Shown here in pieces: positions 16,709 through 36,059 of a stretch of DNA of 64,000 nucleotides. The stretch is taken from contig JAPOUM010000026.1 in NCBI GenBank assembly GCA_026708645.1, forward strand, positions 513-64,512, read 5' to 3'. Numbering within the stretch: the stretch's first letter is position 1; each line of letters begins with the position of its first letter. Below the pieces are notes generated by a model. It searched no databases. It was not told the DNA's origin and worked only from the letters and a program-made list of their open reading frames with translations. The position numbers were made by a program, and so were the translations under genes. The DNA is from Acidimicrobiaceae bacterium. Its GTDB lineage: Bacteria > Actinomycetota > Acidimicrobiia > Acidimicrobiales > Aldehydirespiratoraceae.

Positions 16709-18772
16709 ATGACGATTATTGAGCGTGAAGTTGCAGATGGGAGCGTTGATCCTGGCAGACCTCTGACGCTGGTTGATGAGCTGGTGTTGACTCTTCTCAA
16801 TGAGGAATCCGGCTATTTCCGTCAGGTGCCGATCTGGAACCTCAACTGCGCCGTTATCGGCGGGGCTCTGGCTGAGTTGTCGTTGCGGGGCCGCATCGAC
16901 ACTGATCTCGACTCGTTGATCTTCGTGGACGGCGCACCTACCGGCGACCCGGCGCTTGATCGGCTGCTTGAAAAGATCGGAGCTTCGACCGGGCAGCACA
17001 ACGCTCAATATTGGATCGAGAAGCTTGTGCCGGAGGCCGAGCCCATTATCGATATGACCCTTGAGCGTCTGACCGAGATGAACATTCTGCGGCATCACGA
17101 AGGCGAATTTTGGTCGCTGTCGAAGGTCGTCTGGGGCGCAGCAGACGGATCCGCTGACGGTGCCGACGATCAGGCCAGTAACGAGTTCGTCAAGACTCGT
17201 ATCAGTAGAGCTATCTTCACCGATGAGATCCCGTCGCCTGTGGACGTGATCATCGTTTGTATCACCGATGTCTGTGATGTGCTGCGTTTCATCTTTGAGC
17301 TTGACGAGGCAGCTGAGCAGAGGGTGGTCGAAATCTGCAAGATGGATCTGATCGGGCGTGCCATTGCCGACGCGGTTCGCGAGAATTTCGTCACTGCGCA
17401 AGTTATTCCCACCGCGATCACCAAGCAGATTCCCTCTGTGAAGCTGATGGACATGATTCGCAGTCCAAACGCTCGCAACGGGAATATGCCGGCGTTCTTC
17501 GCTGAATGTTACAAAAAATACGGCCCTGTCTTCAGGCTCAAGCAGCCGTTTCAGCAGCCTTTTACCTGCGTAGCCGGTCCCGAAGTCAATGCGTGGGTTC
17601 ACCGCCACGGTCGATTGTATCTGTCATCAAGGCATGCTCTTGATGATTTCCTAAAAGCTGTCGGTGCAAGAAATTTTGTGAACACGCTTGACGGTGTTGA
17701 TCACTTCAAGTGTCGCAAGTCCTTTCAACAGTCTTTTTCGCGCTCCAGATTAGTGGAGCGATCTGATGAAATGCTCAATTATGGTCTCGACAGTATCTCT
17801 AGTCTGGAAATCGGTAGTGAGATTCCGTTAGTAGAACTTGGATATCGGGTATCCAACTCGCAGATGTCGCCGTTGTTGCTTGGTGTTGAAACTCAGGACG
17901 TCTTTGATGATGTATCTAAATTTATATTGCGAATTCTAATGACGGATTTTGCTGGCTACCTTCCCAAGCTCATGAATCATACTCCTGGAATGCGGCGCCG
18001 CAAGAAACTCTTCAATGAGCTTGTGGATCAGGTCTTTGCTAGTCATACAGCTGCTCAACGAGCCGGTTGCCCCAGAGATTACATTGATGATCTGGTGAGC
18101 TTCAATGCCAGCGACCCTCAGCTGATGCCCCAAGCCAACATGCGCTTTGCAATCATCAACGCCCTGATAAATTCCATGTACACTGGGCAGCAGATGTCGA
18201 CCTTAATGTACTTACTGCTGTCAAACCCGGAAGTTTATCAGCAAGTCACTGCCGAGGCTGATGCAGTATTCGGTGAAGGCGGCAAAGTTGATTTTGAAGT
18301 TTTCACTGGCCCGGCAACTGATGTAACTCAACGGGTAGTCACTGAAAATTTGCGCTTATATCCTACAATATTCGGATCATTCCGCCATGCGATAAACAAC
18401 TGCTTGATCGGTGGATATCAAATGTCGGTGGGAGAAAGACTTTGGATTCTGTCAGCAGTTACTCACTATCTAGACGATCAATTTCCAGAGCCAATGAAGT
18501 TTGACATTGACAGGTACAAGTCTCCGCGTAATGAACATCGCGGCACCGGATATGCCCCGTTTGGACTTGATACTCATACCTGTCTTGGCCAACGTTTAGT
18601 TTCTCTGCAATTGGCAATCAACATTCTGATGTTGTCACACTACTTTGAAATGGAACTGGTAAACAAGGATTCCGATATCAAGATGACTGTTTTGCCTTTG
18701 CCGGGCTTGGCAGCGAGAAGGAAAATCAAAGCCCGCTTCGTCGCGCGCCGCCACGAAGTAACCAAGCCCTGA
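16709..18772 (+). CDS. GPP34/GOLPH3-family domain fused to a cytochrome P450 domain
   Basis: The N-terminal ~210 aa (LTLVDELVLTLLNEESGYF...GGALAELSLRGRID) look like bacterial GPP34 proteins. The C-terminal ~470 aa have ExxR (ENLRLYP) and a Cys-ligand loop PFGLDTHTCLGQRL. GC is far lower than the genome average. Confidence 0.7.
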   Translation: MTIIEREVADGSVDPGRPLTLVDELVLTLLNEESGYFRQVPIWNLNCAVIGGALAELSLRGRIDTDLDSLIFVDGAPTGDPALDRLLEKIGASTGQHNAQYWIEKLVPEAEPIIDMTLERLTEMNILRHHEGEFWSLSKVVWGAADGSADGADDQASNEFVKTRISRAIFTDEIPSPVDVIIVCITDVCDVLRFIFELDEAAEQRVVEICKMDLIGRAIADAVRENFVTAQVIPTAITKQIPSVKLMDMIRSPNARNGNMPAFFAECYKKYGPVFRLKQPFQQPFTCVAGPEVNAWVHRHGRLYLSSRHALDDFLKAVGARNFVNTLDGVDHFKCRKSFQQSFSRSRLVERSDEMLNYGLDSISSLEIGSEIPLVELGYRVSNSQMSPLLLGVETQDVFDDVSKFILRILMTDFAGYLPKLMNHTPGMRRRKKLFNELVDQVFASHTAAQRAGCPRDYIDDLVSFNASDPQLMPQANMRFAIINALINSMYTGQQMSTLMYLLLSNPEVYQQVTAEADAVFGEGGKVDFEVFTGPATDVTQRVVTENLRLYPTIFGSFRHAINNCLIGGYQMSVGERLWILSAVTHYLDDQFPEPMKFDIDRYKSPRNEHRGTGYAPFGLDTHTCLGQRLVSLQLAINILMLSHYFEMELVNKDSDIKMTVLPLPGLAARRKIKARFVARRHEVTKP

Positions 18773-19299: not shown

Positions 19300-19620
19300 T
19301 CAGTCCTGCTCGAGCACAGCCCAGAGGCCGTGCTCGTGGAGCCGGTAAGCGTCGAATTCGGCCTTCTCGAGCGGCCCCGACGCCACCACGGCCCTGCCCT
19401 CGGTGTGAACCTGCATCATCAGCCGGTGCGCCTTGGCTGCCGAATAGCCGAACAATTTGCGGAACACGTAGACCACATACGACATCAAGTTGACCGGGTC
19501 ATCGAGAACGATCACCTTCCAGGGCAGATCAGGCCGCCGGTCGGTCTCGTCCACCGGATCCTTCACAGGAGCGGTGACCGGCGACGCCGAAGCGAGCACC
19601 GCAAAACAGAGTTCGGTCAT
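19300..19620 (-). CDS. clpS: ATP-dependent Clp protease adaptor ClpS
   Basis: [27 protein letters not shown]...[12 protein letters not shown] is the ClpS core. Its ATG overlaps the ctaA stop as ATGA. Confidence 0.9.
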
Positions 19621-20702
19621 GTCGTGCCAATCAGTGGTCTGAAGTCAGAGGGCCTGCTGTCCGGGCGACCGCTGCGCGGTGACGCCCCAGCGTAGGCCGC
19701 CTTGACTATCTGAATCCAAGTGATCGAAGCCAGAGTAACATGAATACCCACTAAAAGCACAGGCACACCCAGAAAATACTGCGCATAACCGACAGCCGCC
19801 TGCACGATCAGCAGTTCGGCGATTCTGCGCATGCGGACTTGTTCGGACGACCCTGACGCCCGCATCCGCCACCAGGCCCAGATCACCAGCACCAGCAGAG
19901 CGATCGCGATGACGCTGTGGACTCGCACCACTTCTCGCACCAGCAGCGGCAGCCGCTCGGCTCGGCTGTCTCCCGCGTGCGGTCCCGCTCCTGTGACCAG
20001 AGTGCCGCTGACCAGCAGCACCGCAGCGACGGTCATCACAGCCCACACCAGCAGCCGAGTGACGCCGTCGGTGCCGCCTGTGCCGTCGGTGCCGCCTGTG
20101 CCGTCGGTGTCGCCTGTGCCAGCGGTGCCGCCTGTATCCCCCGCGTCGTCTTGGTCGTCTTCGCCGCCTCGTCGCTCTGAGCGGCTCGCGTCGTCACCGG
20201 CGAGTTCGACAGCCCGGCCAGGGTCGCCGGGTTCGAAATCGCGGGCTTTCACGTCGAGCAGGGACGCATTCCAAAGCAGCACCATCGACAACAAGAAGTG
20301 CCCCATCGTGAAACGGGGATCGAGCTCCGACAGCACCAGCAGAGCCCCCAGCCCGACTTGGGCCAGCACACCGGCCACCAGACCCAGCGACAACCATGCC
20401 AGATCGGCCCGACGCGGCCTGCGCCGCCAAGCGCCGAGCACGGCGCCGAGCACGGCGACGGCCACGACCCCGGTGAACAGCCGGTTCACGAACTCGACCA
20501 GAGCGTGGAACTCCAAATCCGCCAAGAAGCGGTCCTGTGAGCAGGCGGGCCAGTCCTCGCACCCCAGCCCCGAACCGGTGAGCCGCACGGACACGCCGGT
20601 CACCACGATCGCCGCCAGCGCCCACAAGGCGAACCGAGTGAGCCGTGCATAGGCGGTCGGAGCCACGAGCCGATGGTAGGGCCCGGTCGGCTCGCCGAGC
20701 AC
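19617..20702 (-). CDS. ctaA: Haem A synthase (COX15/CtaA family)
   Basis: [17 protein letters not shown] and multiple TM helices with conserved His. The start is trimmed to the GTG at 20702, because the longest ORF (to 20921) has an Arg/Ser-rich non-protein-like N-terminus and would abut ctaB. Confidence 0.8.
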
Positions 20703-20923
20703 CTGAGCGCTCCACGGACGGCGACTGCCGCTGGCGAGTAGTCGCCTCTGCGATGCTCTCTTGGACGAGCGCCTGTCGGCGTGCAGCCGCGACCCGACGA
20801 TCGCAACACGATCTGACGATCTGGACGATCTGCTGGTGTGGCCCGTCGGCGCGGCGCCGTTCGATCGTCGCCCCCCGGCAGTCAGATGACCAGATGACCG
20901 GTGTGATCTTCTAGCCTGCAAGC

Positions 20924-21823
20924 GTGACCGGAACTGTGACCGGCGAAGTGAGATCGCCTCGCCGCTGGCGAGCCGGGGCTTTTGTTGCTTTGACCAAGCC
21001 CCGCATCGTCGAACTGCTGCTCGTCACCACCGTTCCGTCGATGATCCTGGCCACCGGCGGGCTGCCGTCGCTGTGGCTCATGGCCGCCACCGTGGTGGGA
21101 GGCGCCATGTCAGCGGGCGGCGCCAACGCCTTGAACATGTACATCGACCGTGACATCGACAAACTGATGCACCGCACCCGCAACCGGCCTCTGGTCACGG
21201 GCGCGGTCCGTCCGGTCGAGGCGCTGCTGTTCGCGTCGGCTCTCATAGTCGTCTCGTTCGTGTGGCTCTGGGCTTTCGCCAATCTGTTGGCGGCGGCGCT
21301 GGCCACCGCCGCGGCCGCCTTCTACGTGTTCGTCTACTCGCTGTGGCTGAAACGCTCTTCGGTGCGCAACATCGTGATCGGCGGCGCTGCCGGCGCAATG
21401 CCTGCCCTGGTGGGCTGGGCTGCCGTCACCGGTTCGCTGGACTGGCCGCCGCTGGTGCTGTTCGCGGTGGTCTTCTATTGGACCCCGCCGCATTTCTGGG
21501 CTCTGGCGATCCGCTACCGCAACGATTATCGCAACGCCGATGTCCCCATGCTGCCGGCAGTGACGAGCCTCGCGGTCACAGCACGGCGGATCGTGGCCTA
21601 CACGGTGCTGCTGGTGGCGTTGTCGCTGCTGCTGGTGCCGGTGGCCGACATGGGCGTCGTCTATCTGCTGTCGGCGAGCGTCGCCGGCGGCGGATTCATC
21701 GGTCTGGCCATAGACGTGATGCGCAATCCCGACCCGGCACGGTCGATGCGCCTGTTCGGATGGTCCAATGCGTATCTGATGATTTTGTTCGGCGCGGTCG
21801 CGGCTGATGTGCTCATTGTGTAG
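20924..21823 (+). CDS. ctaB: Protohaem IX farnesyltransferase (haem O synthase)
   Basis: UbiA-family motifs NMYIDRDIDKLMHRTRNRP and WTPPHFWALA. Confidence 0.9.
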   Translation: MTGTVTGEVRSPRRWRAGAFVALTKPRIVELLLVTTVPSMILATGGLPSLWLMAATVVGGAMSAGGANALNMYIDRDIDKLMHRTRNRPLVTGAVRPVEALLFASALIVVSFVWLWAFANLLAAALATAAAAFYVFVYSLWLKRSSVRNIVIGGAAGAMPALVGWAAVTGSLDWPPLVLFAVVFYWTPPHFWALAIRYRNDYRNADVPMLPAVTSLAVTARRIVAYTVLLVALSLLLVPVADMGVVYLLSASVAGGGFIGLAIDVMRNPDPARSMRLFGWSNAYLMILFGAVAADVLIV

Positions 21824-21835
21824 CATCGCGCCACG

Positions 21836-23437
21836 ATGACGCTGACAGAACCGGCCACAGCGGACCCGCTGGCCGACCCAGACGCCGGCGCAGCAGCCGC
21901 ATCACCTGCGCCCTCTGCTGACTCCGCGACCTCGACGCCTGACTCTGCGGCGCAGGTCTTGGCTCAGCGGATCGTCACCAGCGACGGCGCTGCCGTGGGC
22001 CGACTGTTCGTGGCGGTCTCGCTGCTTTGGGGGCTGTTCGCTGCGGTGCTCGCGGCGCTGGTCGCCTTCGGCCGCAGCGACGCCGTCGAGCCCGCGGAGC
22101 TCTTCTCGGGGCTCAACGCCTACTTCCGCATGTGGACCCTCTACCGCATGTCGCTGCTGCTGCTGGTGCTGCTGCCGCTGCTGCTGGGCGTGGCCATGGT
22201 CGTTGTGCCGCGGCAGGTGGGGGCGAGCAACCTCGCTTTCCCGCGCGCCGCCTTGGCGTCTTTCTGGTCGTGGCTCATCGGCTCGGTGATCATGGTGGTG
22301 TCAGTGCTCGCGGGCGGCGGCTGGGGCGCCTTGGACGGGGTGACCCGCAACGAGGGCGACGCCATGGCGCTGACCCTGCTGGGCACCGCTGTGGTGATCG
22401 TGGCGCTGCTGATGGGCGCGGTTTCGCTGGCGACGACGATCATCGCTCTGCGCGGCCCTGACGTGAGGCTCCTGGATGTGCCGCCTTTCGCGTGGTCGAT
22501 GCTCGTGGCTTCGGCAGCGTGGCTTTTCACGCTGCCGATCGCCGTCGCCAACATCGTCGTGATCTACGCGGATCTGCGCGGTCGCCCCGCCGTCGCTTTC
22601 GGCCGGGCCGAAGGCCCTGACATCTGGCTGCAACTCGACTGGCTGCTGGAGCAGCCTGCCGTCTATCTCATGGCGGTGCCGCTGCTGGGCGTCGTCGCTG
22701 AAGTCGTCAGAGGAGTGCTCGGCGCCGGTGTCGGCCGCCCCGAAGTCCCGGCGGTGATCGTGGGCCTGTTCGGGCTGTTGGCCGTGGGCGGCTGGTCGCA
22801 GGACTATTTCACGGCGCCTCAAGATCTGCGCGACGGTCTCGTCTACGTGGCTTTCGGCTTGGCCGCGGTCGTTCCGGTCGCAGCCCTGGCAGGCTTCGTC
22901 GGCCTGCAAGTCGCGCAGAGCCGGCGGAGCGTTCCGCAGCTGCTCGACCTGCGAATCATCGGCGCCGCGGCGGCTCTGGCGCTTCTGGCCGCTGCGACTC
23001 TGGCAGGGGCGTTGCGAGTCGTCGAGCCTTTCGACCTGCTTGAGAGCGCCGCCACCTGGGCTGTGTTCCACGGCGTGGCCGCGGCGGCGCTGCTGGGGGC
23101 TTTCGTCGCTTTGGTCCACTGGTCCGACGAGTTGTTCGGGGCGCCGGTATCGCAACGGGCCGCCGCCGCTAGCGTTGCGCTGGTGGGAGCAGGAGGCGCA
23201 GCGCTGCTGCTGTCTGATCTGCTCTCAGGATTCATTGCCGACGAACCTGATCTCATGGCTTTGGCGCTGGACGGAAAAGTGTTTTTGAATGTGGTGAACT
23301 TTGTGGGGGCCGGGCTGCTCCTCGCCGGGGTCGCCGTTGCGACGGCCGGCGTGGCCCAGGCGACGCGAGCCGGGACAGGAACCGCCGAAGCATCCGCCGT
23401 CGCACAGCCCGCCGCTGAACAGATCGCCGCGCCATGA
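21836..23437 (+). CDS. Haem-copper oxidase subunit I-like membrane protein lacking most metal ligands
   Basis: It aligns by eye with CtaD of this window: FPRAALASFWSWL vs FPRLNALSFWIWL, LEQPAVYLMAVPLLGVVAEVV vs FGHPEVYIIILPAFGVVSEVI, WSQDYF vs WAHHMF, and WAVFHGV vs AHFHYV. Only 2 His remain in 533 aa. Confidence 0.7.
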   Translation: MTLTEPATADPLADPDAGAAAASPAPSADSATSTPDSAAQVLAQRIVTSDGAAVGRLFVAVSLLWGLFAAVLAALVAFGRSDAVEPAELFSGLNAYFRMWTLYRMSLLLLVLLPLLLGVAMVVVPRQVGASNLAFPRAALASFWSWLIGSVIMVVSVLAGGGWGALDGVTRNEGDAMALTLLGTAVVIVALLMGAVSLATTIIALRGPDVRLLDVPPFAWSMLVASAAWLFTLPIAVANIVVIYADLRGRPAVAFGRAEGPDIWLQLDWLLEQPAVYLMAVPLLGVVAEVVRGVLGAGVGRPEVPAVIVGLFGLLAVGGWSQDYFTAPQDLRDGLVYVAFGLAAVVPVAALAGFVGLQVAQSRRSVPQLLDLRIIGAAAALALLAAATLAGALRVVEPFDLLESAATWAVFHGVAAAALLGAFVALVHWSDELFGAPVSQRAAAASVALVGAGGAALLLSDLLSGFIADEPDLMALALDGKVFLNVVNFVGAGLLLAGVAVATAGVAQATRAGTGTAEASAVAQPAAEQIAAP

Positions 23438-23447
23438 GCATCCCGGC

Positions 23448-24032
23448 ATGAGAACCGCTGCCCTGCCCGCTCCGGTCGTCACACGACCGCGTACCGTGGC
23501 CGTCGGGTCGCTGCTGGCCACCGGCGCGGCTTTCATGGCCTTCGCCGGCCTGGTCGCGATCTATGTGCAGCAGCGTCAGCAGGCTCGGGCCACAGGCCAG
23601 GAATGGTTCCCGGAAGGCAGCGTGGAACTGGGGCCCGCGGGCATGATGATGATGACCCTGGCGCTGTCGGTGGTGACAGTCCAATGGGCGGTGCAGGCGG
23701 CCCGCAACGAGGACCGACCGCACGGTTTCGTGGCGCTGGCGGTGACTCTGCTGTTCGGCGCGGCGGTCGTCAATCAGTTCTGGTTCGTCTACTCCGACAC
23801 GGCTTTCGCCATCGACGCAGGCACCGCGCAGCTGCTCTTCTACGCGGTGACGGGTTCGTTCGTCGCCATGCTGGTCGCAGGCTCAGCAATGCTCACAGTC
23901 ACCACCATCCGCGCCCTGATGGGATCGTCCGGGCGTGATCTGGCCCAAGGGGTGCAGGCCGCCGCCGTCTACTGGCACATGTGCGTGTTCTGCTACTTCA
24001 TCGTCTGGTACGTCGTGTTCATCAACAAGTAG
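23448..24032 (+). CDS. Cytochrome c oxidase subunit III-like membrane protein
   Basis: 194 aa with 5 TM helices. The C-terminal VYWHMCVFCYFIVWYVVF resembles the subunit III end (YWHFVDIVWIFIF in the ctaE of this window). The start is the ATG at 23448 within ORF 23301-24032. Confidence 0.6.
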   Translation: MRTAALPAPVVTRPRTVAVGSLLATGAAFMAFAGLVAIYVQQRQQARATGQEWFPEGSVELGPAGMMMMTLALSVVTVQWAVQAARNEDRPHGFVALAVTLLFGAAVVNQFWFVYSDTAFAIDAGTAQLLFYAVTGSFVAMLVAGSAMLTVTTIRALMGSSGRDLAQGVQAAAVYWHMCVFCYFIVWYVVFINK

Positions 24033-24047
24033 CGGCAGCCGACTCAG

Positions 24048-24860
24048 ATGTTCACCACGGGATTCAAACTCTTCTTCGGATTGTTCGGCGCTTTCGTGCT
24101 GGCTGCGCTCGCCTACGGCTACTCCACCGGCGGCGACGGCGTCGGCCCTTTGTCGCTGGGCTGGAAGGGAGGGGTCGGCGATCACATCGGCTACACCCTG
24201 CTGGTGGCTCTGGCGGCGGTGTCGTTGACGATCAGCGTGGTGCTGGTGTCGTATCGCGACGCCGACGCCGACGCCCAGGCCCGCTTGCGCCAGCTCGCCG
24301 AAGTGCCCGCCGACTCCGCGGTCACCGCCAGCGTCTGGCCGGTTCTGGCCTCCTTCGGCGTGGGCGCCGCAGTCTTGGGGCTGGTGCTTCATCCGCTGGT
24401 GTTCACTCTGGGCTTGGCCCTGGTGGCGTTGTCGCTCATCGAGTGGACCATGGACGCTTGGGCTGACAGCGCCACCGGCGACGCCGCGGCCAACCGAGAA
24501 CTGCGCAACCGCATCATGGCGCCGATCGAGATCCCGGTCATCGGGGCTCTGGCCATCGGTGTGGTAGTGCTGGCGGCGTCGCGGATCTTCTTGAACGTCT
24601 CACAGCTGCAGGCGGTGGCGGCGGCCGGCGTGGTGTCGTCTTTGATTCTCGCGGGCGCTTGGCTGTATGTGGCCCGCCCGGGCCAGGGCCGTCGTCTGGT
24701 GAGGGTGCTCGGTGCGGTGGCGGCTCTCGGGCTGCTGGTCGGCGGGGTGCTCGCCGCGGTCGCCGGCGAGCGGGACTTCGAGCATCACCACGGCGACGAC
24801 CATCATGAGGAACATCAGGAATCTTCCAGCGAGCCGACCGGAGGAGCAGGCAGTGGCTGA
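24048..24860 (+). CDS. Polytopic membrane protein with a CtaF-like (actinobacterial subunit IV) N-terminal half and a His/Asp/Glu-rich tail
   Basis: The layout TM-TM-loop-(SVWPVLASFGV...)-TM-TM...EW resembles CtaF. It ends FEHHHGDDHHEEHQE. Confidence 0.5.
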   Translation: MFTTGFKLFFGLFGAFVLAALAYGYSTGGDGVGPLSLGWKGGVGDHIGYTLLVALAAVSLTISVVLVSYRDADADAQARLRQLAEVPADSAVTASVWPVLASFGVGAAVLGLVLHPLVFTLGLALVALSLIEWTMDAWADSATGDAAANRELRNRIMAPIEIPVIGALAIGVVVLAASRIFLNVSQLQAVAAAGVVSSLILAGAWLYVARPGQGRRLVRVLGAVAALGLLVGGVLAAVAGERDFEHHHGDDHHEEHQESSSEPTGGAGSG

Positions 24861-26217
24861 GACACTCGAGACCGCCGCGACGGTCGATCCGCCGGCCGTG
24901 CCGCCGACAGGAACGCCTGCAGGAACGCCGACGCCTGAAGTCGCTGTGAAGTCTGTGCCTGCGCCTGCGCCTGCCCGCGCCTCTGCGCCTCTCGCTGCGG
25001 CGCGCCGCCGAGTCGGCGGGCTGCTGCTGGCCGCGGCAGGGCTGCTGGCGGTCGGAGGTTGCGCGTCCGACGCCGAACTCGACACTTTCGCCCCGCAAGG
25101 CCCCATCGCCGAAGAACTCCACAGCCGCGCCGTGATGCCGGTGATCTGGATCGCGGCGGTGGTGTTCGTGGGGATCGGCGTCGCCTTGGGCCTGCTGATC
25201 TGGCGCAACCGGGTCAAGAGCTACGCCGGCGACGACGAATGGCCTTCGCAGACTCACGGCCACATCCCCCTCGAGGTCGGCTGGACCGTCGGCTTCTTCG
25301 TGACGATGGCGGCAGTGGCCGGGCTGATGCTCTGGTCGCTGCCCACAGTCAACGCCACCGAAGACAACGCCATGGTCGTCGAGATCGACGGTCGCAGCGT
25401 CGACTGGGAACCCACCGTCGTGGTGGTCGGCAACCAGTGGTGGTGGGAGTTCCGCTATTACTTCTCAGATCAGGTGGACCTCGCCGACCTGCGCCGGCAC
25501 GGAGACGCCAAGACCCTGCCTCCCGCGGACATCGTCACCTCCGGGCAGATGGTGATACCCACCGGCGAGGAGGTCGAGTTGATCGTCACGTCGCGCGACG
25601 TGATCCACTCGTTCTGGATACCGGCGCTCAACGGCAAGCGCGACGCCGTCCCCAACCGCTTCTCGCCCTGGAAGATCCAAGCGTCGGCGCCGGGGTTCTA
25701 TTTCGGGCAGTGCACGGAGTTCTGCGGCTTGTCGCATTCGCGCATGAGAATGCAAACCGTGGCGCTCGACCCCGCGGATTTCCAGGCCTGGGTGGACGAC
25801 ACCAGCCTCGACGCCGTGGCGCCTGTCGACCCCGAAGCCCTGGCCGGCCAGGAAGTGTTCTCAGGCATCTGCACTTCTTGCCATGTGGTCGAAGGCCTCA
25901 ACGACGACGTCTTCGAGCGCGCCGATCAGGCGTCGGGCGCCGCGCCGAACCTCACCCATTTCGCGAGTCGCAGCACTTTCGCGGGCGGGATCTTCGACAC
26001 TTACAACGCCGACGGCTCGCTGAACCGCACCGTTTTGGAGGCCTGGCTGCGCAACCCCGGCGAGCTCAAAGCCAACTACATCGTGCCCGGCGAGCAGTAC
26101 CGGGGAATGCCCGACCTGGACCTCAGCGAAGCGCAGATCGACCAGTTGGTGGCTTACCTCGCAGGGCTGGGCGCCAAGCCCGCCGGATGGATAATCGACG
26201 CGACCCGGGTGGAATGA
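24853..26217 (+). CDS. ctaC: Cytochrome c oxidase subunit II with a fused C-terminal cytochrome c domain (caa3-type)
   Basis: CuA motif HSFWIPALNGKRD...GQCTEFCGLSHSRM and haem c site CTSCH. A lipoprotein-like LLAVGGC is present. The start is either GTG 24853 or GTG 24946 (the ORF opens at 24712). Confidence 0.88.
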   Translation: MAETLETAATVDPPAVPPTGTPAGTPTPEVAVKSVPAPAPARASAPLAAARRRVGGLLLAAAGLLAVGGCASDAELDTFAPQGPIAEELHSRAVMPVIWIAAVVFVGIGVALGLLIWRNRVKSYAGDDEWPSQTHGHIPLEVGWTVGFFVTMAAVAGLMLWSLPTVNATEDNAMVVEIDGRSVDWEPTVVVVGNQWWWEFRYYFSDQVDLADLRRHGDAKTLPPADIVTSGQMVIPTGEEVELIVTSRDVIHSFWIPALNGKRDAVPNRFSPWKIQASAPGFYFGQCTEFCGLSHSRMRMQTVALDPADFQAWVDDTSLDAVAPVDPEALAGQEVFSGICTSCHVVEGLNDDVFERADQASGAAPNLTHFASRSTFAGGIFDTYNADGSLNRTVLEAWLRNPGELKANYIVPGEQYRGMPDLDLSEAQIDQLVAYLAGLGAKPAGWIIDATRVE

Positions 26218-26218
26218 A

Positions 26219-28291
26219 ATGTCCATAATTGAGAAGCCTGAAATAATTGAGAAGCCTGAAGTTGAGAAGCCGGACGCCCCGCCGCTGGAACTCGAGGCCG
26301 GCGAGGTCGTCAGGCACGCCGAGAGGCCTCTCGGAGTGTTCACGCGCCCGCAAGGCGGACGCGGCTGGCGCGACTGGCTCAGCACCGTCGACCACAAGCG
26401 CATCGGCATCCTCTACGGCGTCTCGGCGATGTTCTTCTTCTTGGTCGGAGGCGTCCAGGCGCTGCTGATCCGTCTGCAGCTGGCCGTGCCTGACGGCAGC
26501 GTGCTCAGCGCCGACGTCTACAACCAGATCTACACCATGCACGGCGTCACCATGGTGTTCCTGTTCATCATGCCCCTAGCCGCGGCTTTCGCGAACTACT
26601 TCATCCCTCTGCAGATCGGCGCGCGCGACGTGGCGTTCCCGCGGCTCAACGCTCTGTCTTTCTGGATCTGGCTCTCGGGCGCCATCTTCTTGAACACGTC
26701 CTGGATCGTGGGCGGCGGAGGCGCCGACTGCGGCTGGTTCTGCTATTCGCCCAACAGCGGAGTGGCCTTCTCTCCGAGTCACGGCGTTGACTTCTACGCC
26801 ATCGGATTGCAGATACTGGGTCTCGCCTCCCTGATTTCGGCGGTCAACTTGATCGTCACCTGCCTCAACATGCGCGCCCCCGGCATGACCTTGATGCGCA
26901 TGCCGATCTTCACCTGGATGCTGCTGATCACGCAGTTCCTGCTGCTGTTCGCTCTTCCGGTGATCACCGTGGCGCTGTTCTTGTTGATGTTCGACCGGGT
27001 CTTCGACGCGCAGTTCTTCAATGTCGACGCCGGCGCCGACCCGCTGCTGTGGCAGCACCTCTTCTGGATTTTCGGGCATCCCGAGGTCTACATCATCATC
27101 CTGCCAGCCTTCGGGGTGGTCTCCGAAGTGATCCCGACGTTCAGCCGCAAGCCCCTGTTCGGCTACGAGTTCATGGTGTTCTCCGGCGTCGCCATCGGTT
27201 TCATGGGCTGGGGGGTGTGGGCACACCACATGTTCGTGTCGGGCATGGGCCCCATATCCGTGGCGGCGTTCTCGCTGTCGACGATGTTCATAGCGGTGCC
27301 CACGGGCGTGAAAGTCCTCAACTGGCTGGCCACGATGTGGGGCGGCAAGCTGAGGTTCACAGTGGCCATGAAGTTCGCTGTGGCGACGGTGGCGATGTTC
27401 ACCATCGGGGGTCTGTCGGGCGTGACCCATTCGGTGGCGCCGGCCAACACTCAGCACACCGACACCTACTACATCGTGGCGCATTTCCACTATGTGATCT
27501 TCGGCGGCGGCGTGCTCGGACTGTTCGCGGGACTGTATTTCTGGTGGCCCAAGATCTGGGGGCATTTCCTCAACGAACGCGTCGGCAACTGGCATTTCTG
27601 GATGACTCTGGTCGGCTTCAACCTGACCTTCGGCCCGATGCACATTCTGGGGCTGCAAGGCATGTCGCGCCGCATCGACACTTACGCGCGCGGCTACGGC
27701 TTCGAGTTCTGGAACCTGATCGCCACTGTCGGCTCGCTGCTGATAGCCGCAGCCACGGCGCTGTTCATCTGGAACGTGATCAAGTCCAGACGCGAAGCCC
27801 GTCACCTGCCGCCGCCCGGGCCGGATCCCTGGGACGCCCGCAGCCTCGAATGGTCGGTGCCTTCGCCGGTGCCGGTACACAACTTCGACACGGTGCCGCA
27901 GATTCGCAGCCGCGACGACTGGTGGCACACCAAGTACGGCGAGGGCGCCGACGGCAGTGTGGTGCGACTGGCCACCGCCGAGGAGGCCGCTCAGACCGGC
28001 GAAGCTCAAGACGTGCATCTGCCTTCACCCTCTTTCTGGCCGCTGGCCGTGGCCGTGGGACTGCCTTTGATCGGCTACGGCTTGATCTTCAATCTCTGGT
28101 TCGCGCTGATCGGCGCGCTGATCGCGGTCGGTTCGCTGTATTCGTGGGCGCTGGAGCCGGTCGATGATCCCGACGCTGTCCACGACCATCACGACGACCA
28201 CACCGGCCATGACGACTCTTCCGGCCCGCCGCCGCCACCGCCTGAGTCGCCGGAGACGCCGCCGCCCGCCCCGGCCGAGGCCGCGTCATGA
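26219..28291 (+). CDS. ctaD: Cytochrome c oxidase subunit I with a C-terminal CtaF-like two-helix extension
   Basis: All canonical ligand motifs are present (GHPEVY, WAHHMF, HFHYV). The N-terminus has the IIEKPE IIEKPE VEKPD repeat. The extra C-terminal SFWPLAVAVGLPLIGYG... is followed by an HDHHDDHTGHDD tail. Confidence 0.92.
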   Translation: MSIIEKPEIIEKPEVEKPDAPPLELEAGEVVRHAERPLGVFTRPQGGRGWRDWLSTVDHKRIGILYGVSAMFFFLVGGVQALLIRLQLAVPDGSVLSADVYNQIYTMHGVTMVFLFIMPLAAAFANYFIPLQIGARDVAFPRLNALSFWIWLSGAIFLNTSWIVGGGGADCGWFCYSPNSGVAFSPSHGVDFYAIGLQILGLASLISAVNLIVTCLNMRAPGMTLMRMPIFTWMLLITQFLLLFALPVITVALFLLMFDRVFDAQFFNVDAGADPLLWQHLFWIFGHPEVYIIILPAFGVVSEVIPTFSRKPLFGYEFMVFSGVAIGFMGWGVWAHHMFVSGMGPISVAAFSLSTMFIAVPTGVKVLNWLATMWGGKLRFTVAMKFAVATVAMFTIGGLSGVTHSVAPANTQHTDTYYIVAHFHYVIFGGGVLGLFAGLYFWWPKIWGHFLNERVGNWHFWMTLVGFNLTFGPMHILGLQGMSRRIDTYARGYGFEFWNLIATVGSLLIAAATALFIWNVIKSRREARHLPPPGPDPWDARSLEWSVPSPVPVHNFDTVPQIRSRDDWWHTKYGEGADGSVVRLATAEEAAQTGEAQDVHLPSPSFWPLAVAVGLPLIGYGLIFNLWFALIGALIAVGSLYSWALEPVDDPDAVHDHHDDHTGHDDSSGPPPPPPESPETPPPAPAEAAS

Positions 28292-28923
28292 GCGCCGAGC
28301 CGGTGACGACCGATCCCGCGGCGGCCGCCGAGGCGGCTGTCGGCCACGACCCGCACGCCACTTCCACGGGCTTGTCGCACACCAAGCTCGCCATGTGGGT
28401 GTTCCTGGGCTCGGAGTGCCTGCTGTTCGGCGGGCTGGTCTCCACTTATCTGCTGTATGCCACCCGCGGCAACGGGCGAACGCTGCCTGCCGAAGTCTTC
28501 GACATCCCGTTCACGTCGGTGAGCTCGTTCGTGCTGTTGATGAGCTCGCTCACGATGGTGCTGGCTCTGTCGGCGGTGTCCCGAGGCGAGCCGGAGTCGG
28601 GAAGAGCCTGGTTGCTGGCCACAGCGCTGCTCGGCGGAGTGTTCCTCGGTGGGCAGGTGTACGAGTTCACGGCTTTCGTGCGCGAGGGGGTGGGCTTCAC
28701 CACCAGCCCGGCCAGCAGCGCATTCTTCACTCTGACCGGCTTCCACGGAGTACACGTGGCTCTGGGCATCGTCATGCTGATGTCGCTGTTCGTGCGATCA
28801 GTCAAAGGCAATCTCACCAAGAAGAACTCCGAGACCGTTGAGATCATCGGCCTTTACTGGCACTTCGTGGACATCGTGTGGATCTTCATCTTCACCGTCA
28901 TCTACCTGATCCCAGTCGACTGA
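28288..28923 (+). CDS. ctaE: Cytochrome c oxidase subunit III
   Basis: 211 aa with FFTLTGFHGVHV and YWHFVDIVW motifs. Its ATGA start overlaps the ctaD stop. Confidence 0.9.
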   Translation: MSAEPVTTDPAAAAEAAVGHDPHATSTGLSHTKLAMWVFLGSECLLFGGLVSTYLLYATRGNGRTLPAEVFDIPFTSVSSFVLLMSSLTMVLALSAVSRGEPESGRAWLLATALLGGVFLGGQVYEFTAFVREGVGFTTSPASSAFFTLTGFHGVHVALGIVMLMSLFVRSVKGNLTKKNSETVEIIGLYWHFVDIVWIFIFTVIYLIPVD

Positions 28924-28972: not shown

Positions 28973-29344
28973 ATGAGCGAAACGACCACCACCGAACGAG
29001 CCGCAGAGCACGCTGCGGCGTCGAGCGACCCGAGCGCCGACACCGAGGCCCATAGCGAAGGGCACGCCCATCCTTCCGACTGGGCATACGTCAAGATCGC
29101 CTTGGCGTTGGCGGTGATAACCGCGCTGGAGGTTTTCACCTACTTCGAGTCGGTGCTCGACTGGGGCGTGGCGCTGGTGCCGTCGCTGCTGTTCATGATG
29201 GTCGTCAAGTTCTATTTGGTGGCTACCTGGTTCATGCATCTGCGTTTCGACAGCAAGCTGTTCGGCCGGATGTTCACCGCCGGGCTGCTGCTCGCCGTGG
29301 GCGTCTACGTCGCCACGCTGGCCGCCTCGGAGTTCTTCGCCTAG
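28973..29344 (+). CDS. Cytochrome c oxidase subunit IV (prokaryotic caa3/Bacillus type)
   Basis: 123 aa with 3 TM helices. The YVKIALALAVITALEV...KFYLVATWFMHL pattern is typical of the COX4_pro family. Confidence 0.75.
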   Translation: MSETTTTERAAEHAAASSDPSADTEAHSEGHAHPSDWAYVKIALALAVITALEVFTYFESVLDWGVALVPSLLFMMVVKFYLVATWFMHLRFDSKLFGRMFTAGLLLAVGVYVATLAASEFFA

Positions 29345-29414: not shown

Positions 29415-30320
29415 ATGCCGGCCGCCGCCGACGCTTGGCGATTCCAGTTCCACCCGGAGGTGTGGCTGATGATCGCGGCGATCGTCGGCCTCGGCTACTA
29501 CGTGGTCCGCGTGGTGGCGCCCGTGGCCGCCCCTGCCGGCGCCGCAGTGACACGCCGTCAGCGGCTGTGCTTCGTGGCCGGGGTGCTGCTGTTGTGGGTG
29601 TCGGCCGATTGGCCCATGCACGACATCGCCGAGGATTACCTCTACTCGGTCCACATGGTGCAGCATCTGCTGATCAGCTTCGTGGTGCCGCCGCTGCTGG
29701 TCATGGCCGTGCCCGAATGGCTGGCTCGGCTTATTCTGACCGAAGACTCGCGTGCGTCTCGTATGATCCGCCGTGCGACGCATCCGCTGGTGGCCGGCGT
29801 GGTCTTCAACGCCTTGCAAGGTTTGATGCACTGGAGCGCTCTGGTGGACCTGTCGGTGCGCAACGGCGCGTTCCACTACTCCATGCACCTGCTGATGTTC
29901 ACCAGCGCTCTGGCGATGTGGACGCCGCTGGTCTCCCCGCTCAAGGAGATGCAGCTCTCCGAGCCGTTGAAGATGCTCTATTTGTTCGCCATGTCGATAG
30001 TGCCGACTGTGCCCGCCGGCTGGCTCACCTTCGCTGAAGGTTCGGTCTACCCGGTCTACGACCACGCGCAGCGGCTCTGGGGTGTTTCTGTGACAGCCGA
30101 CCAGCAGGCGGCGGGCGCGGTTATGAAAGTGCTGGGCGGCCTTTACCTGTGGACGCTCATCGCCATCAAGTTCTTTCGCTTCTCGGCTGCGCAGCGCCAA
30201 GCCGACGCATCCGAGCGCCGCCGACGCCTGGAGGACGACACCCTCACCACAGCAGACGTGACAGCCGAATTCGAGCGGTTGGGCCGGCCGCCCGTCGAAC
30301 ATTCGAGACCAGCCGAATAG
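29415..30320 (+). CDS. ctaG: Cytochrome c oxidase assembly factor CtaG (Caa3_CtaG family)
   Basis: WRFQFHPEVW..., YLYSVHMVQHLLISFVVPPLLV and the polytopic membrane pattern. Confidence 0.8.
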   Translation: MPAAADAWRFQFHPEVWLMIAAIVGLGYYVVRVVAPVAAPAGAAVTRRQRLCFVAGVLLLWVSADWPMHDIAEDYLYSVHMVQHLLISFVVPPLLVMAVPEWLARLILTEDSRASRMIRRATHPLVAGVVFNALQGLMHWSALVDLSVRNGAFHYSMHLLMFTSALAMWTPLVSPLKEMQLSEPLKMLYLFAMSIVPTVPAGWLTFAEGSVYPVYDHAQRLWGVSVTADQQAAGAVMKVLGGLYLWTLIAIKFFRFSAAQRQADASERRRRLEDDTLTTADVTAEFERLGRPPVEHSRPAE

Positions 30321-30375: not shown

Positions 30376-30445
30376 ACTCGTATTCCTGAGCCGCTGCCTC
30401 AGACGCTTTCTGAGCCGCCGTCTCAGGCGTTTCCTCAGCCGCCGG
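30376..30445. repeat. Tandem ~24-bp units, each a short hairpin (CTGAGCCGC..CTCAG), between convergent ctaG and the KamA gene
   Basis: The sequence CCTGAGCCGCTGCCTCAGACGCTTTC TGAGCCGCCGTCTCAGGCGTTTCC TCAGCCGCC was read directly. Confidence 0.6.
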
Positions 30446-32036
30446 CTTTGCGGCCCGCCGACGCGGAACGCTGCTTGTGCAGTTCCTCGTCGTGTCTTCG
30501 CTGCGCCGGGGTGAGACGGGCTTTGGCACCGCCGCCGGAGTCCTGCTGGGAGCGCGCCGTCTCGGCGGCGGCGGCGATCTCCACCCGCTTCGGCCGCTTG
30601 AAGTTGAACAAGCCGGCCTCGTCCACGATCACCCTGTCGTCGTAGTCGTCGAACCACAAAGCCTCGGGGTTGCGCCCCACGATCGCGGTCCTGCCGCGTC
30701 CGGAGGCGTCTTGCGGGCTGCGCAGCACCTTGAACACCACCACGCCGTTCTCGGCGCCCGGCACTCCCGGAATCGGTTCGTCGGTCACCGCGGCCACCTC
30801 GGTCTTGCCCTTGAAGTGGACCAGAGTGAGCCGTGCGTGGGCTTCGACGCCCGACAGCCCCTGCTGCGACTCGTTGAGAATTCGCCAGGCGGTCTCGACG
30901 GGCACGTTGAACGCCTTGTAGGCGACGATGTTGCGACCGCCGAAGAAGTAATGGTTCTCGATGCCGGCGGCTTTCAGGGTCTGCTGAAGCAGCCGCAGAG
31001 CGTCGGGGTCGTCGTTCACGCCGCGAATGATCGGCGACTGGTTCTCGACGCAGATCCAGCCTCTCGAAGTGATCTGCTCCACGGCTTGCGCCACTCTGCG
31101 ATTCCATCGGAAGCGGCCGTTCTCGCCGGCGACGTAGCCGGCGACGTAGCCGCCGTCGGGCGCCTTGTCCAGGAGTTCGTCGGGATGGTTGAAATGCACC
31201 ATGAACCGCAGCGCCACATCGGGGTAGACCTCATGGAACAGGTCGAGCATCGACATCAGGGCCCCGTCGAAGCGCTGCGGATGGAACGCCAGCTCTTTGG
31301 TGCCGATCCTGATCACTTCGGCGCCAGCCTCAGCCAGAGCGGTCAGCCAGCCGGCCAGCTTGGAGTTGGGCAGCACCATCGGGTCGCCGCCGGACAGCAG
31401 GATCTCGCGCAGCTTGGGCCGCCCGGTCTCGGGATGCCTGCCGCCGTTGGCCGCCACTGCGGCGTTGTGGGCGCGGATGTAATCGGTCACCTCGCCGGGC
31501 TGCGCCAGACCCTTCTTCTTGACGGTGCCGTCGGCGTGGGCGACCTCTTTGCGGGCGATCAGCTCTTCGCGGTAGCAGAACCTGCAATGCGCCGAGCAGG
31601 TGGAGATCACATACAGCAACGCCATCTCGTATTTGTGGAGCAGCCCCTCCACCGGGCTGTAGTCGAGTTGCCCGGCGGGGTCCTCGTCGCCTTCGAGGTC
31701 GGCGGTCTCGTCGGCGGAGGCCTTGACCAGGCGCTGCAAGGAGCGGCTGTTGCGGGCCATCTCGAAGTAGTGGCGGGTGATCTTCACCGGCATCCGCGCC
31801 TCGACGTCGCGTGCGCTGCCGGTGAGGGGCTGCAACTCTGCCAGCTCGTCGGACGAGTAGAAGCCTCGCATCTCCTCGGGAGCGGACCCGCTGATGAACG
31901 GGTCCAGGCCGTTGACGATCTGGCGGTCATAGCGCGGGTTCTCGACGTGATCGAGCACTCGCCGCTCGGTTTCGGTGGGCTGATATTTCGCTTTGCGCTG
32001 GATTTTGGTGTTGGCAGTCATGGCACCTTCAGTCAT
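30435..32036 (-). CDS. KamA-family radical SAM protein (lysine 2,3-aminomutase-like) with a long C-terminal extension
   Basis: Radical SAM cluster motif CSAHCRFCYREE and the KamA-like pattern around it. The start is taken at the ATG with an upstream GGGAG (the ORF opens at 32111 with TTG). Confidence 0.8.
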   Translation of the reverse strand: MTEGAMTANTKIQRKAKYQPTETERRVLDHVENPRYDRQIVNGLDPFISGSAPEEMRGFYSSDELAELQPLTGSARDVEARMPVKITRHYFEMARNSRSLQRLVKASADETADLEGDEDPAGQLDYSPVEGLLHKYEMALLYVISTCSAHCRFCYREELIARKEVAHADGTVKKKGLAQPGEVTDYIRAHNAAVAANGGRHPETGRPKLREILLSGGDPMVLPNSKLAGWLTALAEAGAEVIRIGTKELAFHPQRFDGALMSMLDLFHEVYPDVALRFMVHFNHPDELLDKAPDGGYVAGYVAGENGRFRWNRRVAQAVEQITSRGWICVENQSPIIRGVNDDPDALRLLQQTLKAAGIENHYFFGGRNIVAYKAFNVPVETAWRILNESQQGLSGVEAHARLTLVHFKGKTEVAAVTDEPIPGVPGAENGVVVFKVLRSPQDASGRGRTAIVGRNPEALWFDDYDDRVIVDEAGLFNFKRPKRVEIAAAAETARSQQDSGGGAKARLTPAQRRHDEELHKQRSASAGRKAGG

Positions 32037-32270
32037 AGAACTTTTGCTCCCGACCCGGTCGGCGGAGAGGATCACTCTCGGAGAGCCGTCGTAGTCAGCA
32101 CATCCCTCCAACGGTCACGGCCGCCGTCGCTGACACGGGCTATCGAGAGTCCTCGCTTCAGTCTGCCAGATAATCCACAGCTGTGCAAAACCGTGCGGTG
32201 AGAGCCTGCTAATCCAGCGGGCGGAATGCCGGGAGTTTCTCCGCCGTTCGCAGGCGCTACCGTCACAGTC

Positions 32271-35407: not shown

Positions 35408-35411
35408 TGCT

Positions 35412-36059
35412 CTAACTGTCCGCGCCGACGCCGAACAAGCGCCGGATCCGCTCGGTCAGCGCCTCTTGGTCGAGCGCTCCGGCGAAAGTGTCGAGCAGTT
35501 CGCCTTCAGGCGACACGAACGCGGTGGTGGGCATGGAGATGCTCCCGGTTGCCTGGTAGACCTCGAGGTCGAGATCCCAGCCTATGTCATAGGTCACGCC
35601 GGTGGCTGCGACCAGATCCAAGGTGTCTTGCACGGTGCGGTCCTGCGAAAGCCCCAGGAACTCGACTCGCCCTTCGAGGGCTTCGAAGACTCGCTGGAAT
35701 TCGGGCATCTCCCGCACGCAGGGCGGGCACCACGCCGCAAAGAAGTTGACCACCAGCGGCCTTCCGCCGTATTCGGCGAGCCTGCGGCCGGCTGCGTCGA
35801 CCGGGGCGCCGGTTTCTTGCAAGCCGTCGAAGGTCAGTTCCGAGACGCTCAGGTGAGCATCGTCGCGGTCTGAGTCCCCGGCTTCGAGCAGCGGCCCGAC
35901 CAAGAAGGCGATCAGCGTGGCTGCGACCACCGCCGCGAGCCCCGCAGCGTGGCGCGCCCGCAGGCGCGACCGCAGTCCCCGGGACGGCTCTTCGAGCGCC
36001 GCTTCGGTGGCTTCGCTTGACGCGGGTTCCTGCTCCTGGCGTGCGCAGGCCGTGTTCAT
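35412..36059 (-). CDS. TlpA/ResA-like thioredoxin-fold disulfide reductase (membrane-anchored)
   Basis: VVNFFAAWCPPCVREMPEF active site with one N-terminal TM. The ATG at 36059 overlaps the orn stop. Confidence 0.8.
   Translation of the reverse strand: MNTACARQEQEPASSEATEAALEEPSRGLRSRLRARHAAGLAAVVAATLIAFLVGPLLEAGDSDRDDAHLSVSELTFDGLQETGAPVDAAGRRLAEYGGRPLVVNFFAAWCPPCVREMPEFQRVFEALEGRVEFLGLSQDRTVQDTLDLVAATGVTYDIGWDLDLEVYQATGSISMPTTAFVSPEGELLDTFAGALDQEALTERIRRLFGVGADS

Follow-up and report, generated by a model that had tools for sequence, protein, structure and literature searches.

A ligand-depleted paralogue of the oxidase membrane core within the caa3 operon of Acidimicrobiia

A 64,000-nucleotide (nt) stretch of an Acidimicrobiaceae bacterium genome (GenBank assembly GCA_026708645.1, contig JAPOUM010000026.1, positions 513 to 64,512 of the forward strand; hereafter "the window", whose own numbering is used throughout) carries three open reading frames (ORFs), here named X1, X3 and X4, which occupy positions 21836-24860 and are wedged between ctaB and the full ctaC-D-E-IV-G set of a caa3-type cytochrome oxidase. 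These three genes are under purifying selection and always occupy the same place in the operon in the Acidimicrobiia loci sampled, and the sequence of the subunit I paralogue X1 indicates that, in the lineage of the window, it has lost the means to bind either haem or CuB. The composition of the module appears best explained as a subunit I, a subunit III split over X3 and a hairpin of X4, and a CtaF-like part. We favour the reading, to which we assign a probability of about one half, that X1-X3-X4, a paralogue of the membrane core of the oxidase without catalytic activity, is kept as a structural partner of the caa3 oxidase. The three genes and the features discussed below are as follows.

21836..23437, + strand: X1, 533 amino acids (aa), subunit I paralogue with 12 transmembrane (TM) helices (Pfam COX1, E 9e-33)
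22142..22144, + strand: X1 Tyr103, at the position of the helix II low-spin haem His (Tyr in 113/118 and His in 4/118 family members)
22649..22666, + strand: X1 E272-Q273-P-A-V-Y277, formerly G-H-P-E-V-Y with CuB His, D-channel Glu and cross-link Tyr (family alignment)
22799..22804, + strand: X1 Q322-D323, formerly the helix VII CuB His-His pair (Gln in 118/118, Asp in 111/118)
23066..23074, + strand: X1 F411-H412-G413, remnant of the helix X H-F-H-Y after a 2-residue deletion (family alignment)
23448..24032, + strand: X3, 194 aa, subunit III paralogue of the 5-helix form, COX3 TM3-7 (Pfam COX3, E 6.5e-12)
24048..24860, + strand: X4, 270 aa, 7 predicted TM helices, N-in/C-out (261 homologues, none with a Pfam family)
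24048..24455, + strand: X4 residues 1-136, CtaF-like four-helix part (sub-threshold PF12270 matches)
24483..24773, + strand: X4 residues 146-242, amphipathic 'NRELRNRIMAPIEIP' helix and three TM helices (anchor region, by homology with anchored cupredoxins)
24780..24857, + strand: X4 C-terminal tail EHHHGDDHHEEHQESSSEPTGGAGSG, His/acid-rich, predicted extracytoplasmic (tail composition across homologues)

From ctaB on, the whole region is a single close-packed string of plus-strand genes, with ctaA divergent from it. Gaps of 12 nt (ctaB-X1), 10 nt (X1-X3) and 15 nt (X3-X4) separate the genes; the start of X3, an ATG, was read directly from the sequence, and the best start for ctaC is a GTG at 24853, preceded 8 nt upstream by GGAGGAG, which yields an 8-nt overlap with the X4 stop. 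The G+C content at third codon positions (GC3) of the three genes is 0.81-0.84, equal to that of adjacent genes. These results bear out a preliminary description of the locus, made from the letters and ORFs alone, which had proposed subunit I-like and III-like genes with tight spacing, an overlap into ctaC and normal codon bias. A scan for promoters and terminators over 19-31 kb returned none above chance inside the gene string, which fits a single operon and is no proof of one. No COX2 homologue lies between ctaB and X4, and the sole ctaC is that of the genuine oxidase set, so that the module comes without a dedicated subunit II. In Bacillus subtilis, the corresponding gene order is ctaA / ctaB-C-D-E-F-G; the operon frame in the window is this same order with an extra "D-E-F-like" block placed ahead of ctaC.

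Architecture of X1, X3 and X4

X1 scores 114 bits against Pfam COX1, above the gathering score (the genuine CtaD of the window reaches 514 bits), shares 26% identity with that CtaD by BLASTP, and obtains 146 bits from the TIGR02891 (CtaD_CoxA) equivalog model, which leaves it short of the 670.75 cut-off. An AlphaFold2 model of X1 built on a 76-sequence alignment attained pLDDT 86 and pTM 0.88, and a Foldseek search with this model matched exclusively catalytic subunit I chains, including mycobacterial and bovine ones, at TM-scores of 0.76-0.81. As modelled, the 12-helix fold is intact, in keeping with the fold-level landmarks that the preliminary description had recognised in X1. The ligand positions, read from the BLASTP alignment with the window CtaD and from a 118-member alignment of close homologues, have been substituted exactly as that description had stated: YTMHGV of CtaD is WTLYRM in X1, GHPEVY is EQPAVY, WAHHMF is WSQDYF, and AHFHY is reduced to FHG after a 2-residue gap. 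The first CuB His is replaced by Gln in 118/118 sequences and the D-channel Glu by Ala, with the cross-link Tyr retained in 116/118. In helix X, the His of haem a3 has been deleted in 118/118, and the second His is His in 81/118 and Asn in 31/118. In place of six His, the six ligand columns of the family thus hold Tyr, Gln, Gln, Asp, a gap and His/Asn.

The proton pathways and haem contacts have fared no better. Of the D-channel residues, the Asp of loop II-III has become Asn, the Asn of helix II/III has become Met or Ala, and the Glu of helix VI has become Ala; lost as well are the Lys of the K channel, in helix VIII, and the two Arg (PRR) that contact the haem propionates. With just 2 His and 0 Cys among its 533 residues (family median, 2 His), X1 cannot supply six His ligands, and the possibility that they are present but shifted along the alignment, which the preliminary description had named as the outcome that would overturn it, is thereby ruled out. 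X1 of the window lineage is thus predicted to be unable to bind haem a, haem a3 or CuB, with both known proton channels lost, and the module as a whole would be unable to reduce oxygen, carry electrons, or pump protons via the known channels. Conservation within X1 is uneven, being high in TM2-TM7 (0.70-0.79, and 0.90 in the 3-4 loop) and lower in TM8-TM12 (0.52-0.65), an asymmetry that is absent from the genuine CtaD. By analogy with solved A-type oxidases, the conserved half would be the D-channel side on which subunit III packs, and the freer half the former haem-holding half that contacts subunit II.

X3 is a subunit III relative, with 46.3 bits against Pfam COX3 (PF00510; gathering score 23.8) over profile positions 81-253, i.e. 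TM3-7, 25% identity to the window CtaE, and the actinobacterial CtaE model as its top NCBIfam match. Here too, characteristic residues have gone: GFHGVH reads GSFVAM and VYEFT reads VYSDT, and the Trp is all that the X3 family conserves of YWH, which indicates that the conserved His and Glu residues of COX3 have been lost.

X4 itself returned nothing above threshold in searches of Pfam and NCBIfam. Its family has 51 invariant columns among 31 diverse members that are 50-85% identical. An AlphaFold2 model, of low confidence (pLDDT 60) and used for its helix count and not for fold searches, contains seven TM helices plus one short helix, and the loop content of Lys+Arg, read from the sequence as about 11 versus 2, predicts an N-in, C-out topology. 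The likeness of the N-terminal half to CtaF, also put forward in the preliminary description, is real but weak: PF12270 matches fall below threshold in 16/31 members (best E 6e-4, all under the gathering score of 26.9), and the window X4 itself gives E 1.7 over residues 7-136, likewise below the gathering score.

Within this half, residues 93-136 form a hairpin bearing an "S-x-W-P" motif, which aligns by hhalign (E 1.9e-4) with a PF12270-like hairpin of two TM helices ("SFWP...", residues 601-646) that the genuine CtaD carries as an additional C-terminal element. Searched against sequences in the Protein Data Bank (PDB), the X4 profile gave just weak matches to the N-terminus of COX3 (E 0.1 and 0.29), and an hhalign comparison of the hairpin with bovine COX3 gave E 0.005, a value that we treat as a lead only and that the PDB matches back up. 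The hairpin may thus correspond, weakly, to TM1-2 of COX3, the COX3 match itself being weak. X3, which covers TM3-7, and the X4 hairpin would therefore together rebuild a full subunit III, in parallel to ctaE and the CtaD extension. A separate protein, P0216 (470 aa, on a 1.6-kb contig), looks like a fusion of X3 and X4, with a COX3 match at residues 34-159 and 52% identity to X4. We discounted it as evidence of association: X3 and X4 are in frame with each other in the window, and one lost stop codon or an assembly error would suffice to produce it.

The C-terminal half of X4 resembles other proteins. A derivation of its helices from the COX4_pro subunit IV of the same operon was considered and rejected, as hhalign of the two families produced no alignment (probability 0.6%). 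Instead, residues 146-242 are homologous to the part by which certain stand-alone cupredoxins are anchored in the membrane: a search started from an X4 homologue recovered P0436, P0438 and P0441 (206-234 aa), which consist of this anchor, an acidic linker and a cupredoxin domain. Such proteins are encoded directly 3' of ctaG in caa3 operons (L088:1292-4226; L089:2433-3080), and at the first of these loci the gene is followed by one for a CopC-CopD fusion protein. Cupredoxin domains with type 1 copper ligands also occur on X4 proteins themselves, at the two most basal loci. The X4 of locus L087 ends in one (PF00127, 26.3 bits against a gathering score of 21.2; "...CDVPGHRDAGM"), and that of L091 has a cupredoxin-like C-terminus with "...KCDFHPTM", weaker than in L087; the cupredoxin of these basal X4 proteins also has a weak match to SoxE (E 8e-4). 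The position of these domains therefore lends independent support to the C-out topology.

In the X4 of the window and its relatives, the sequence beyond a conserved GERDF motif is a short tail, with a median length of 23 aa and median counts of 4 for His, 8 for Asp+Glu and 0 for Lys+Arg, and with at least 3 His in 109/119. The window protein, whose tail has 26 residues, contains no Cys and no cupredoxin domain, so that X4 does not qualify as a type 1 copper (PF00127) protein; the comparison indicates that its cupredoxin domain has been replaced by the His/acid-rich tail. Two further arrangements were noted at this end of X4. Ilumatobacteraceae-type X4 proteins (L081:9371-10492; P0435; 373-374 aa) carry, at the position of the cupredoxin or tail, a C-terminal domain of about 130 aa for which a Pfam search gave no match and which is preceded by the His-rich stretch HHFSHKECGEEENEHFDH. 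At L091, the most basal locus, a gene for a thioredoxin-fold protein (AhpC-TSA/Redoxin, TlpA-like; 12338-12904) lies between the cupredoxin-bearing X4 and ctaC.

Selection, synteny and stepwise loss of cofactors

Relatives of the locus were collected by scanning one genome per species with narrow peptide patterns, a procedure that found 88 loci, of which 80 were kept, and from which no absence can be concluded for other lineages or for some Acidimicrobiia. All 80 belong to Acidimicrobiales or unclassified Actinomycetota metagenome-assembled genomes (MAGs); with 75-76% identity, Ca. Aldehydirespirator comes closest, and Ca. Microthrix as well as marine and sponge lineages are also represented. 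The order ctaA(-)-ctaB-X1-X3-X4-ctaC-ctaD-ctaE-IV-ctaG is the same in 80/80 loci, barring contig ends and two local exceptions, one without a ctaA match (L073) and one without a subunit IV or ctaG match inside the locus (L052). Accordingly, ctaA is found at the matching position in 79/80, and ctaB lies immediately 5' of X1 in all loci that extend far enough upstream. Seven more divergent members occupy the same slot after ctaB and before the genuine oxidase genes, with small variations, and for an eighth (L087) the contig begins just 5' of X1, leaving ctaB out of view. At the divergent locus L083 (8001-14121), X1-X3-X4 is followed directly by ctaD and ctaE, with no COX4_pro or ctaG gene after them and no ctaC called in the gap of about 290 nt that precedes ctaD. 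The linkage of the module therefore seems tighter to ctaD/ctaE than to ctaC.

Median dN/dS values (Nei-Gojobori, 442 close pairs) are 0.27 for X1, 0.16 for X3 and 0.22 for X4, as compared to 0.11 for ctaD, 0.24 for ctaC and 0.27 for subunit IV, which means that the X genes are constrained about as strongly as genuine accessory subunits. The mean identity of the commonest residue is 0.73 for X4, 0.72 for X3 and 0.66 for X1. Taken together with the synteny of the 80 loci and seven divergent ones, this agrees with the preliminary judgement that the module is selected and not decayed, and the outcome said there to count against it, absence or pseudogenisation in close relatives, was not encountered among these loci. 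One could still suppose that the three genes are leftovers of a tandem duplication heading for loss, since X1, at 36-76% identity across loci as compared to 72-93% for CtaD, is the faster-evolving of the two and retains none of the catalytic residues. However, intact syntenic frames in every one of the 80 loci (contig ends excepted) and in divergent lineages, the low median dN/dS of all three genes, the 51 invariant columns of X4 and the normal codon composition already refute this idea, which we regard as having a negligible chance of being right.

To place X1 in a broader context, 1.84 billion representatives clustered at 50% identity were searched with a hidden Markov model of the family. 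This gave 307 matches at E<=1e-30, and the best 150, used here, all score at least 198 bits, as compared to 166 bits for a genuine mycobacterial CtaD on the same profile. By this measure, the family is large. Among these best 150 of 307, all named members come from Acidimicrobiales, Ilumatobacteraceae or unclassified Actinomycetota MAGs, and they bear the annotations "cbb3-type cytochrome c oxidase subunit I", "cytochrome c oxidase subunit I" or "hypothetical". Ligands were surveyed in 125 full-length sequences (124 representatives and the window X1). No more than one CuB His is present in any of them, so that CuB is absent throughout, and all six His are missing from 95/125. The low-spin haem retains its bis-His pair in 16/125, and 3 of those 16 also keep the a3 His. 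The term "ligand-less", as used in the preliminary description, is thus apt for the window and its close clade but not for the whole family, whose basal members keep haem His ligands.

In a neighbour-joining (NJ) tree rooted on genuine CtaDs, from which the ligand columns were excluded, the sequences that keep haem His are nearest to CtaD and make up the first six branches. This is an indication that they represent a basal grade, from a type of tree that is prone to long-branch effects. One basal sequence, P0322, is 32% identical to CtaD and keeps FTLHG and AAHIHA, with GAPQIY and FAAAT at the CuB positions. Such basal relatives probably still bind haem, and the pattern of ligands across the family argues that X1 descends from a copy of subunit I that was already without CuB.

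The same survey bears on the residues that have taken the place of the ligands. Across the wider family, the residues conserved at 80% or more are only those fold residues that are common to genuine CtaD. The Gln/Gln/Asp/Tyr combination seen in the clade of the window hence does not amount to a new site common to the family, and a conserved alternative metal site made of it, being confined to that clade, was rejected. This makes it very improbable, in our estimate, that X1 is a cryptic redox enzyme that binds metal or haem through non-His ligands, such as a Tyr-ligated haem or a Gln/Gln/Asp/Tyr/Glu non-haem site. The substitutes are admittedly non-random in the window's clade, with Gln/Gln/Asp in 111-118/118 and the cross-link Tyr in 116/118, and the basal relatives are probably still haem-binding. 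Yet these same residues vary freely in the wider family, the second axial position alternates between His (81 of 118) and Asn (31), the propionate-binding Args are gone, and the window has no electron-entry subunit, the X4 cupredoxin having been lost and no copy of subunit II being present.

A related proposal is that the emptied cavities, lined by Tyr103, Arg104, Glu272, Gln273, Gln322, Asp323, Arg394 and Glu397, form a new polar path, making X1 a transporter or ion channel. These polar or charged TM residues are invariant or nearly so among 76-118 close homologues, as would be expected of such a path, but the wider family does not conserve them. Neither the D nor the K pathway of the canonical type survives, which weakens those routes and leaves other paths conceivable, and a transporter would leave the oxidase-operon context, X3 and X4 unexplained. 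We consider this proposal improbable, if slightly less so than a cryptic enzyme.

Role of the module within the caa3 operon

As candidate roles, the preliminary description had suggested an assembly or haem/copper-delivery platform, a supercomplex spacer and a proton/ion channel. The observations above can be accommodated in a scenario in which a duplicated oxidase core lost CuB at the outset. The CuB-less copy, with a tethered blue-copper domain, would have served as a redox or electron-entry module beside the oxidase, and its redox centres would subsequently have been lost in most lineages. X1, X3 and X4 would then assemble into a cofactor-free, oxidase-shaped membrane body that stays attached to the caa3 oxidase as a supernumerary structural module, a relic of an electron-entry unit on which the oxidase (super)complex came to depend. 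X4 would present its outward, possibly metal-binding His/acid-rich tail level with the CuA/cytochrome c domain of CtaC. A bolder form of this scenario, in which live and dead oxidases form an obligate hetero-assembly, the dead partner being a former CuB-less haem/blue-copper electron-entry module whose redox centres were lost repeatedly and independently and of which only the structure is needed, is put forward more tentatively.

Several points weigh against the module as a structural partner of the oxidase. Its production, assembly and contact with the oxidase are predicted from gene order, selection and domain fusions, and a crude analysis of rate covariation with CtaC, CtaD and CtaE over 66 loci gave no link of the X proteins to either CtaD or CtaE; the X proteins covary mildly with each other (r 0.23-0.32), a pattern that probably stems from differences in saturation between fast and slow genes. 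The His-rich X4 tail could be a leftover linker of the lost cupredoxin, since the linker of the stand-alone homologues is similarly acidic and His-containing. Any link to CtaC is not universal, given that no ctaC is called between X4 and ctaD at L083. Finally, the basal placing of the sequences that keep haem His comes from an NJ tree, with its proneness to long-branch effects.

Several of the same features can also be read in terms of oxidase biogenesis, with the X body as a transient platform that is absent from the mature enzyme and, for example, holds CtaC or CtaD during insertion of haem a and copper, the X4 tail capturing copper for CuA or CuB. The position between ctaB and ctaC, in an operon that also includes ctaA and ctaG, would suit such a role, as would the predicted outside location of a tail with at least 3 His in 109/119 homologues, the CopC/CopD gene that follows a related anchored cupredoxin, and the TlpA/thioredoxin-like gene between X4 and ctaC at the most basal locus. 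However, type 1 cupredoxin sites (His, Cys, His, Met) are electron carriers and not typical copper chaperones, and X1 has no His, Cys or Met cluster with which to hold haem or copper. A 12-helix subunit I together with a subunit III would moreover be an unusually costly chaperone: to our knowledge, the assembly factors Surf1, Sco, Cox11 and CtaG are all far smaller than, and unrelated to, the subunits that they serve. A platform of this kind hence seems to us rather unlikely, although clearly less so than a channel or a cryptic enzyme.

The genuine oxidase genes with which a structural partner would associate, and the haem synthesis and assembly genes around them, are the following.

19617..20921, - strand: ctaA, haem A synthase (Pfam COX15-CtaA, E 1.7e-16; longest ORF, 434 aa; divergent from the operon)
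20924..21823, + strand: ctaB, haem O synthase, first gene of the operon (Pfam UbiA, E 8.6e-64)
24853..26217 (probable start), + strand: ctaC, genuine subunit II with fused cytochrome c, caa3 type (COX2, E 9e-23; Cytochrom_C, E 2.8e-5)
26219..28291, + strand: ctaD, genuine subunit I with all ligands (Pfam COX1, E 4e-154, 514 bits; TIGR02891, 687.5 bits, above the cut-off)
28288..28923, + strand: ctaE, genuine subunit III (Pfam COX3, E 3.2e-20)
28973..29344, + strand: caa3 subunit IV, COX4_pro type (PF03626, E 6.9e-9)
29415..30320, + strand: ctaG, Bacillus-type caa3 assembly factor (PF09678, E 2.8e-41)

Subunit IV also matches TIGR02229 (E 9.7e-8), at 32.7 bits and thus below the 37.25 cut-off. 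His-rich segments are found on three separate subunits of this caa3 operon. In CtaD, the C-terminal hairpin is followed by a His/Asp-rich and then a Pro-rich tail (HDHHDDHTGHDD...PPPPPP; residues ~600-690 in all), and the COX4_pro subunit IV has a His/acid-rich N-terminus ahead of an invariant H-P-S-D motif in all loci inspected. The longest ORF for CtaA has an Arg/Ser-rich N-terminal extension and an internal Gly/Asp/Thr-rich repeat insert that divides its Pfam match into two stretches; the CtaA of Acidimicrobiaceae has been described as a special type with an H60N substitution (PMC8239418).

Further out, a 558-aa ORF immediately 3' of ctaG (30435-32111, - strand) contains a CxxxCxxC motif (CSAHCRFC) typical of radical-SAM enzymes, and a Pfam search with it gave no match at E<=1e-3. 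Cytochrome c maturation genes, for a CcdA/DsbD-type membrane protein and a thioredoxin-like (ResA/TlpA-like) protein, lie 4-6 kb 3' of the oxidase operon (34256-36299, - strand). On the other side, a gene at 16709-18772 (+ strand), in a patch of lower G+C content (57% versus ~66%), encodes a 687-aa fusion of GPP34 (Golgi phosphoprotein 3-like; PF05719, residues 21-225) and cytochrome P450 (PF00067, residues 257-658); according to the title of one study (PMC11706023), GPP34 is a family tied to sponge symbiosis in Actinobacteriota.

Significance and comparison with known systems

A search of the full-text literature returned no description of the X module or of its function, as the preliminary description had supposed, with a mention in subscription journals being possible given their thin and incomplete coverage. 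As far as we could find, there is no earlier account of a class-wide, selected branch that is without the six His and comes with subunit III- and IV-like partners of its own. Haem-copper oxidases are defined by their six histidines, and the X branch has discarded them. Because X1-type proteins are named as oxidase subunit I, the number of terminal oxidases may be overestimated when metabolism is reconstructed for Acidimicrobiia, a class with abundant lineages in marine and freshwater habitats, in sponges and in activated sludge. Should the module prove to be a structural partner or an assembly platform, it would represent a previously unrecognised layer of oxidase architecture or biogenesis. 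Its graded relatives offer a ready comparative series, which starts with two haems and blue copper, passes through one haem and ends without any cofactor. If a hetero-assembly of live and dead oxidases were to prove true, the haem-copper oxidase superfamily would have its first pseudoenzyme branch, and with it a natural haem-to-empty series in which to study the subunit I/III scaffold apart from its chemistry.

By homology, X1-X3-X4 is placed in the haem-copper oxidase superfamily, nearest to the A-type oxidases of Actinomycetota and Bacillota, represented by CtaD/CtaE/CtaF of the mycobacterial bcc-aa3 supercomplex (PDB 6ADQ/6HWH) and by the aa3-600 oxidase of B. subtilis (6KOB). With this A-type core the module shares the 12-helix fold of X1 (whose top sequence matches are mycobacterial CtaD at 166 bits and B. 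subtilis QoxB at 162 bits), a 5-helix COX3 in X3, and the weak likeness of the N-terminal half of X4 to actinobacterial CtaF. It differs in that X1 has no usable His ligands, D and K channels or propionate Args, in that there is no partner subunit II, and in that X4, unlike CtaF, has three extra helices and an outward tail.

Nitric oxide (NO) reductases are likewise members of the haem-copper superfamily in which CuB-site ligands have been altered in evolution. The cNOR and qNOR types, and the proposed eNOR, sNOR and gNOR, are catalytic and have both haems, together with an FeB or CuB site in which at least two His are present. In the X1 family, by contrast, CuB is gone in every member and the haem ligands are gone in most, including the window; the two haems and His3(Glu) FeB site of an NO reductase are not found in X1, whose best matches are A-type oxidases and not NorB. 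As the functional hallmarks of the haem-copper oxidase family are all missing, the module is therefore filed neither as an oxidase nor as an NO reductase.

For X4, the closest comparison is with the anchored blue-copper proteins P0436, P0438 and P0441, with which its C-terminal half shares the amphipathic helix, the three TM helices and an acidic, His-containing linker, the differences being that the window X4 is without the cupredoxin and that its anchor is fused to the CtaF-like four-helix part. Sulfocyanin SoxE (PF06525) of the Sulfolobus SoxM complex is an analogous blue-copper protein encoded in an oxidase operon.

The alpha subunit of F1-ATPase is a non-catalytic paralogue that has been retained as a structural partner, and the X module resembles it in having kept the fold, lost the chemistry and remained under selection beside an active copy, with which it is predicted to associate. 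Unlike in F1-ATPase, it is a three-subunit set and not one subunit that would have been duplicated and silenced. Overall, the description that suits the X module best is that of a pseudoenzyme branch within the haem-copper oxidase superfamily, one that has III- and IV-like subunits of its own as partners.

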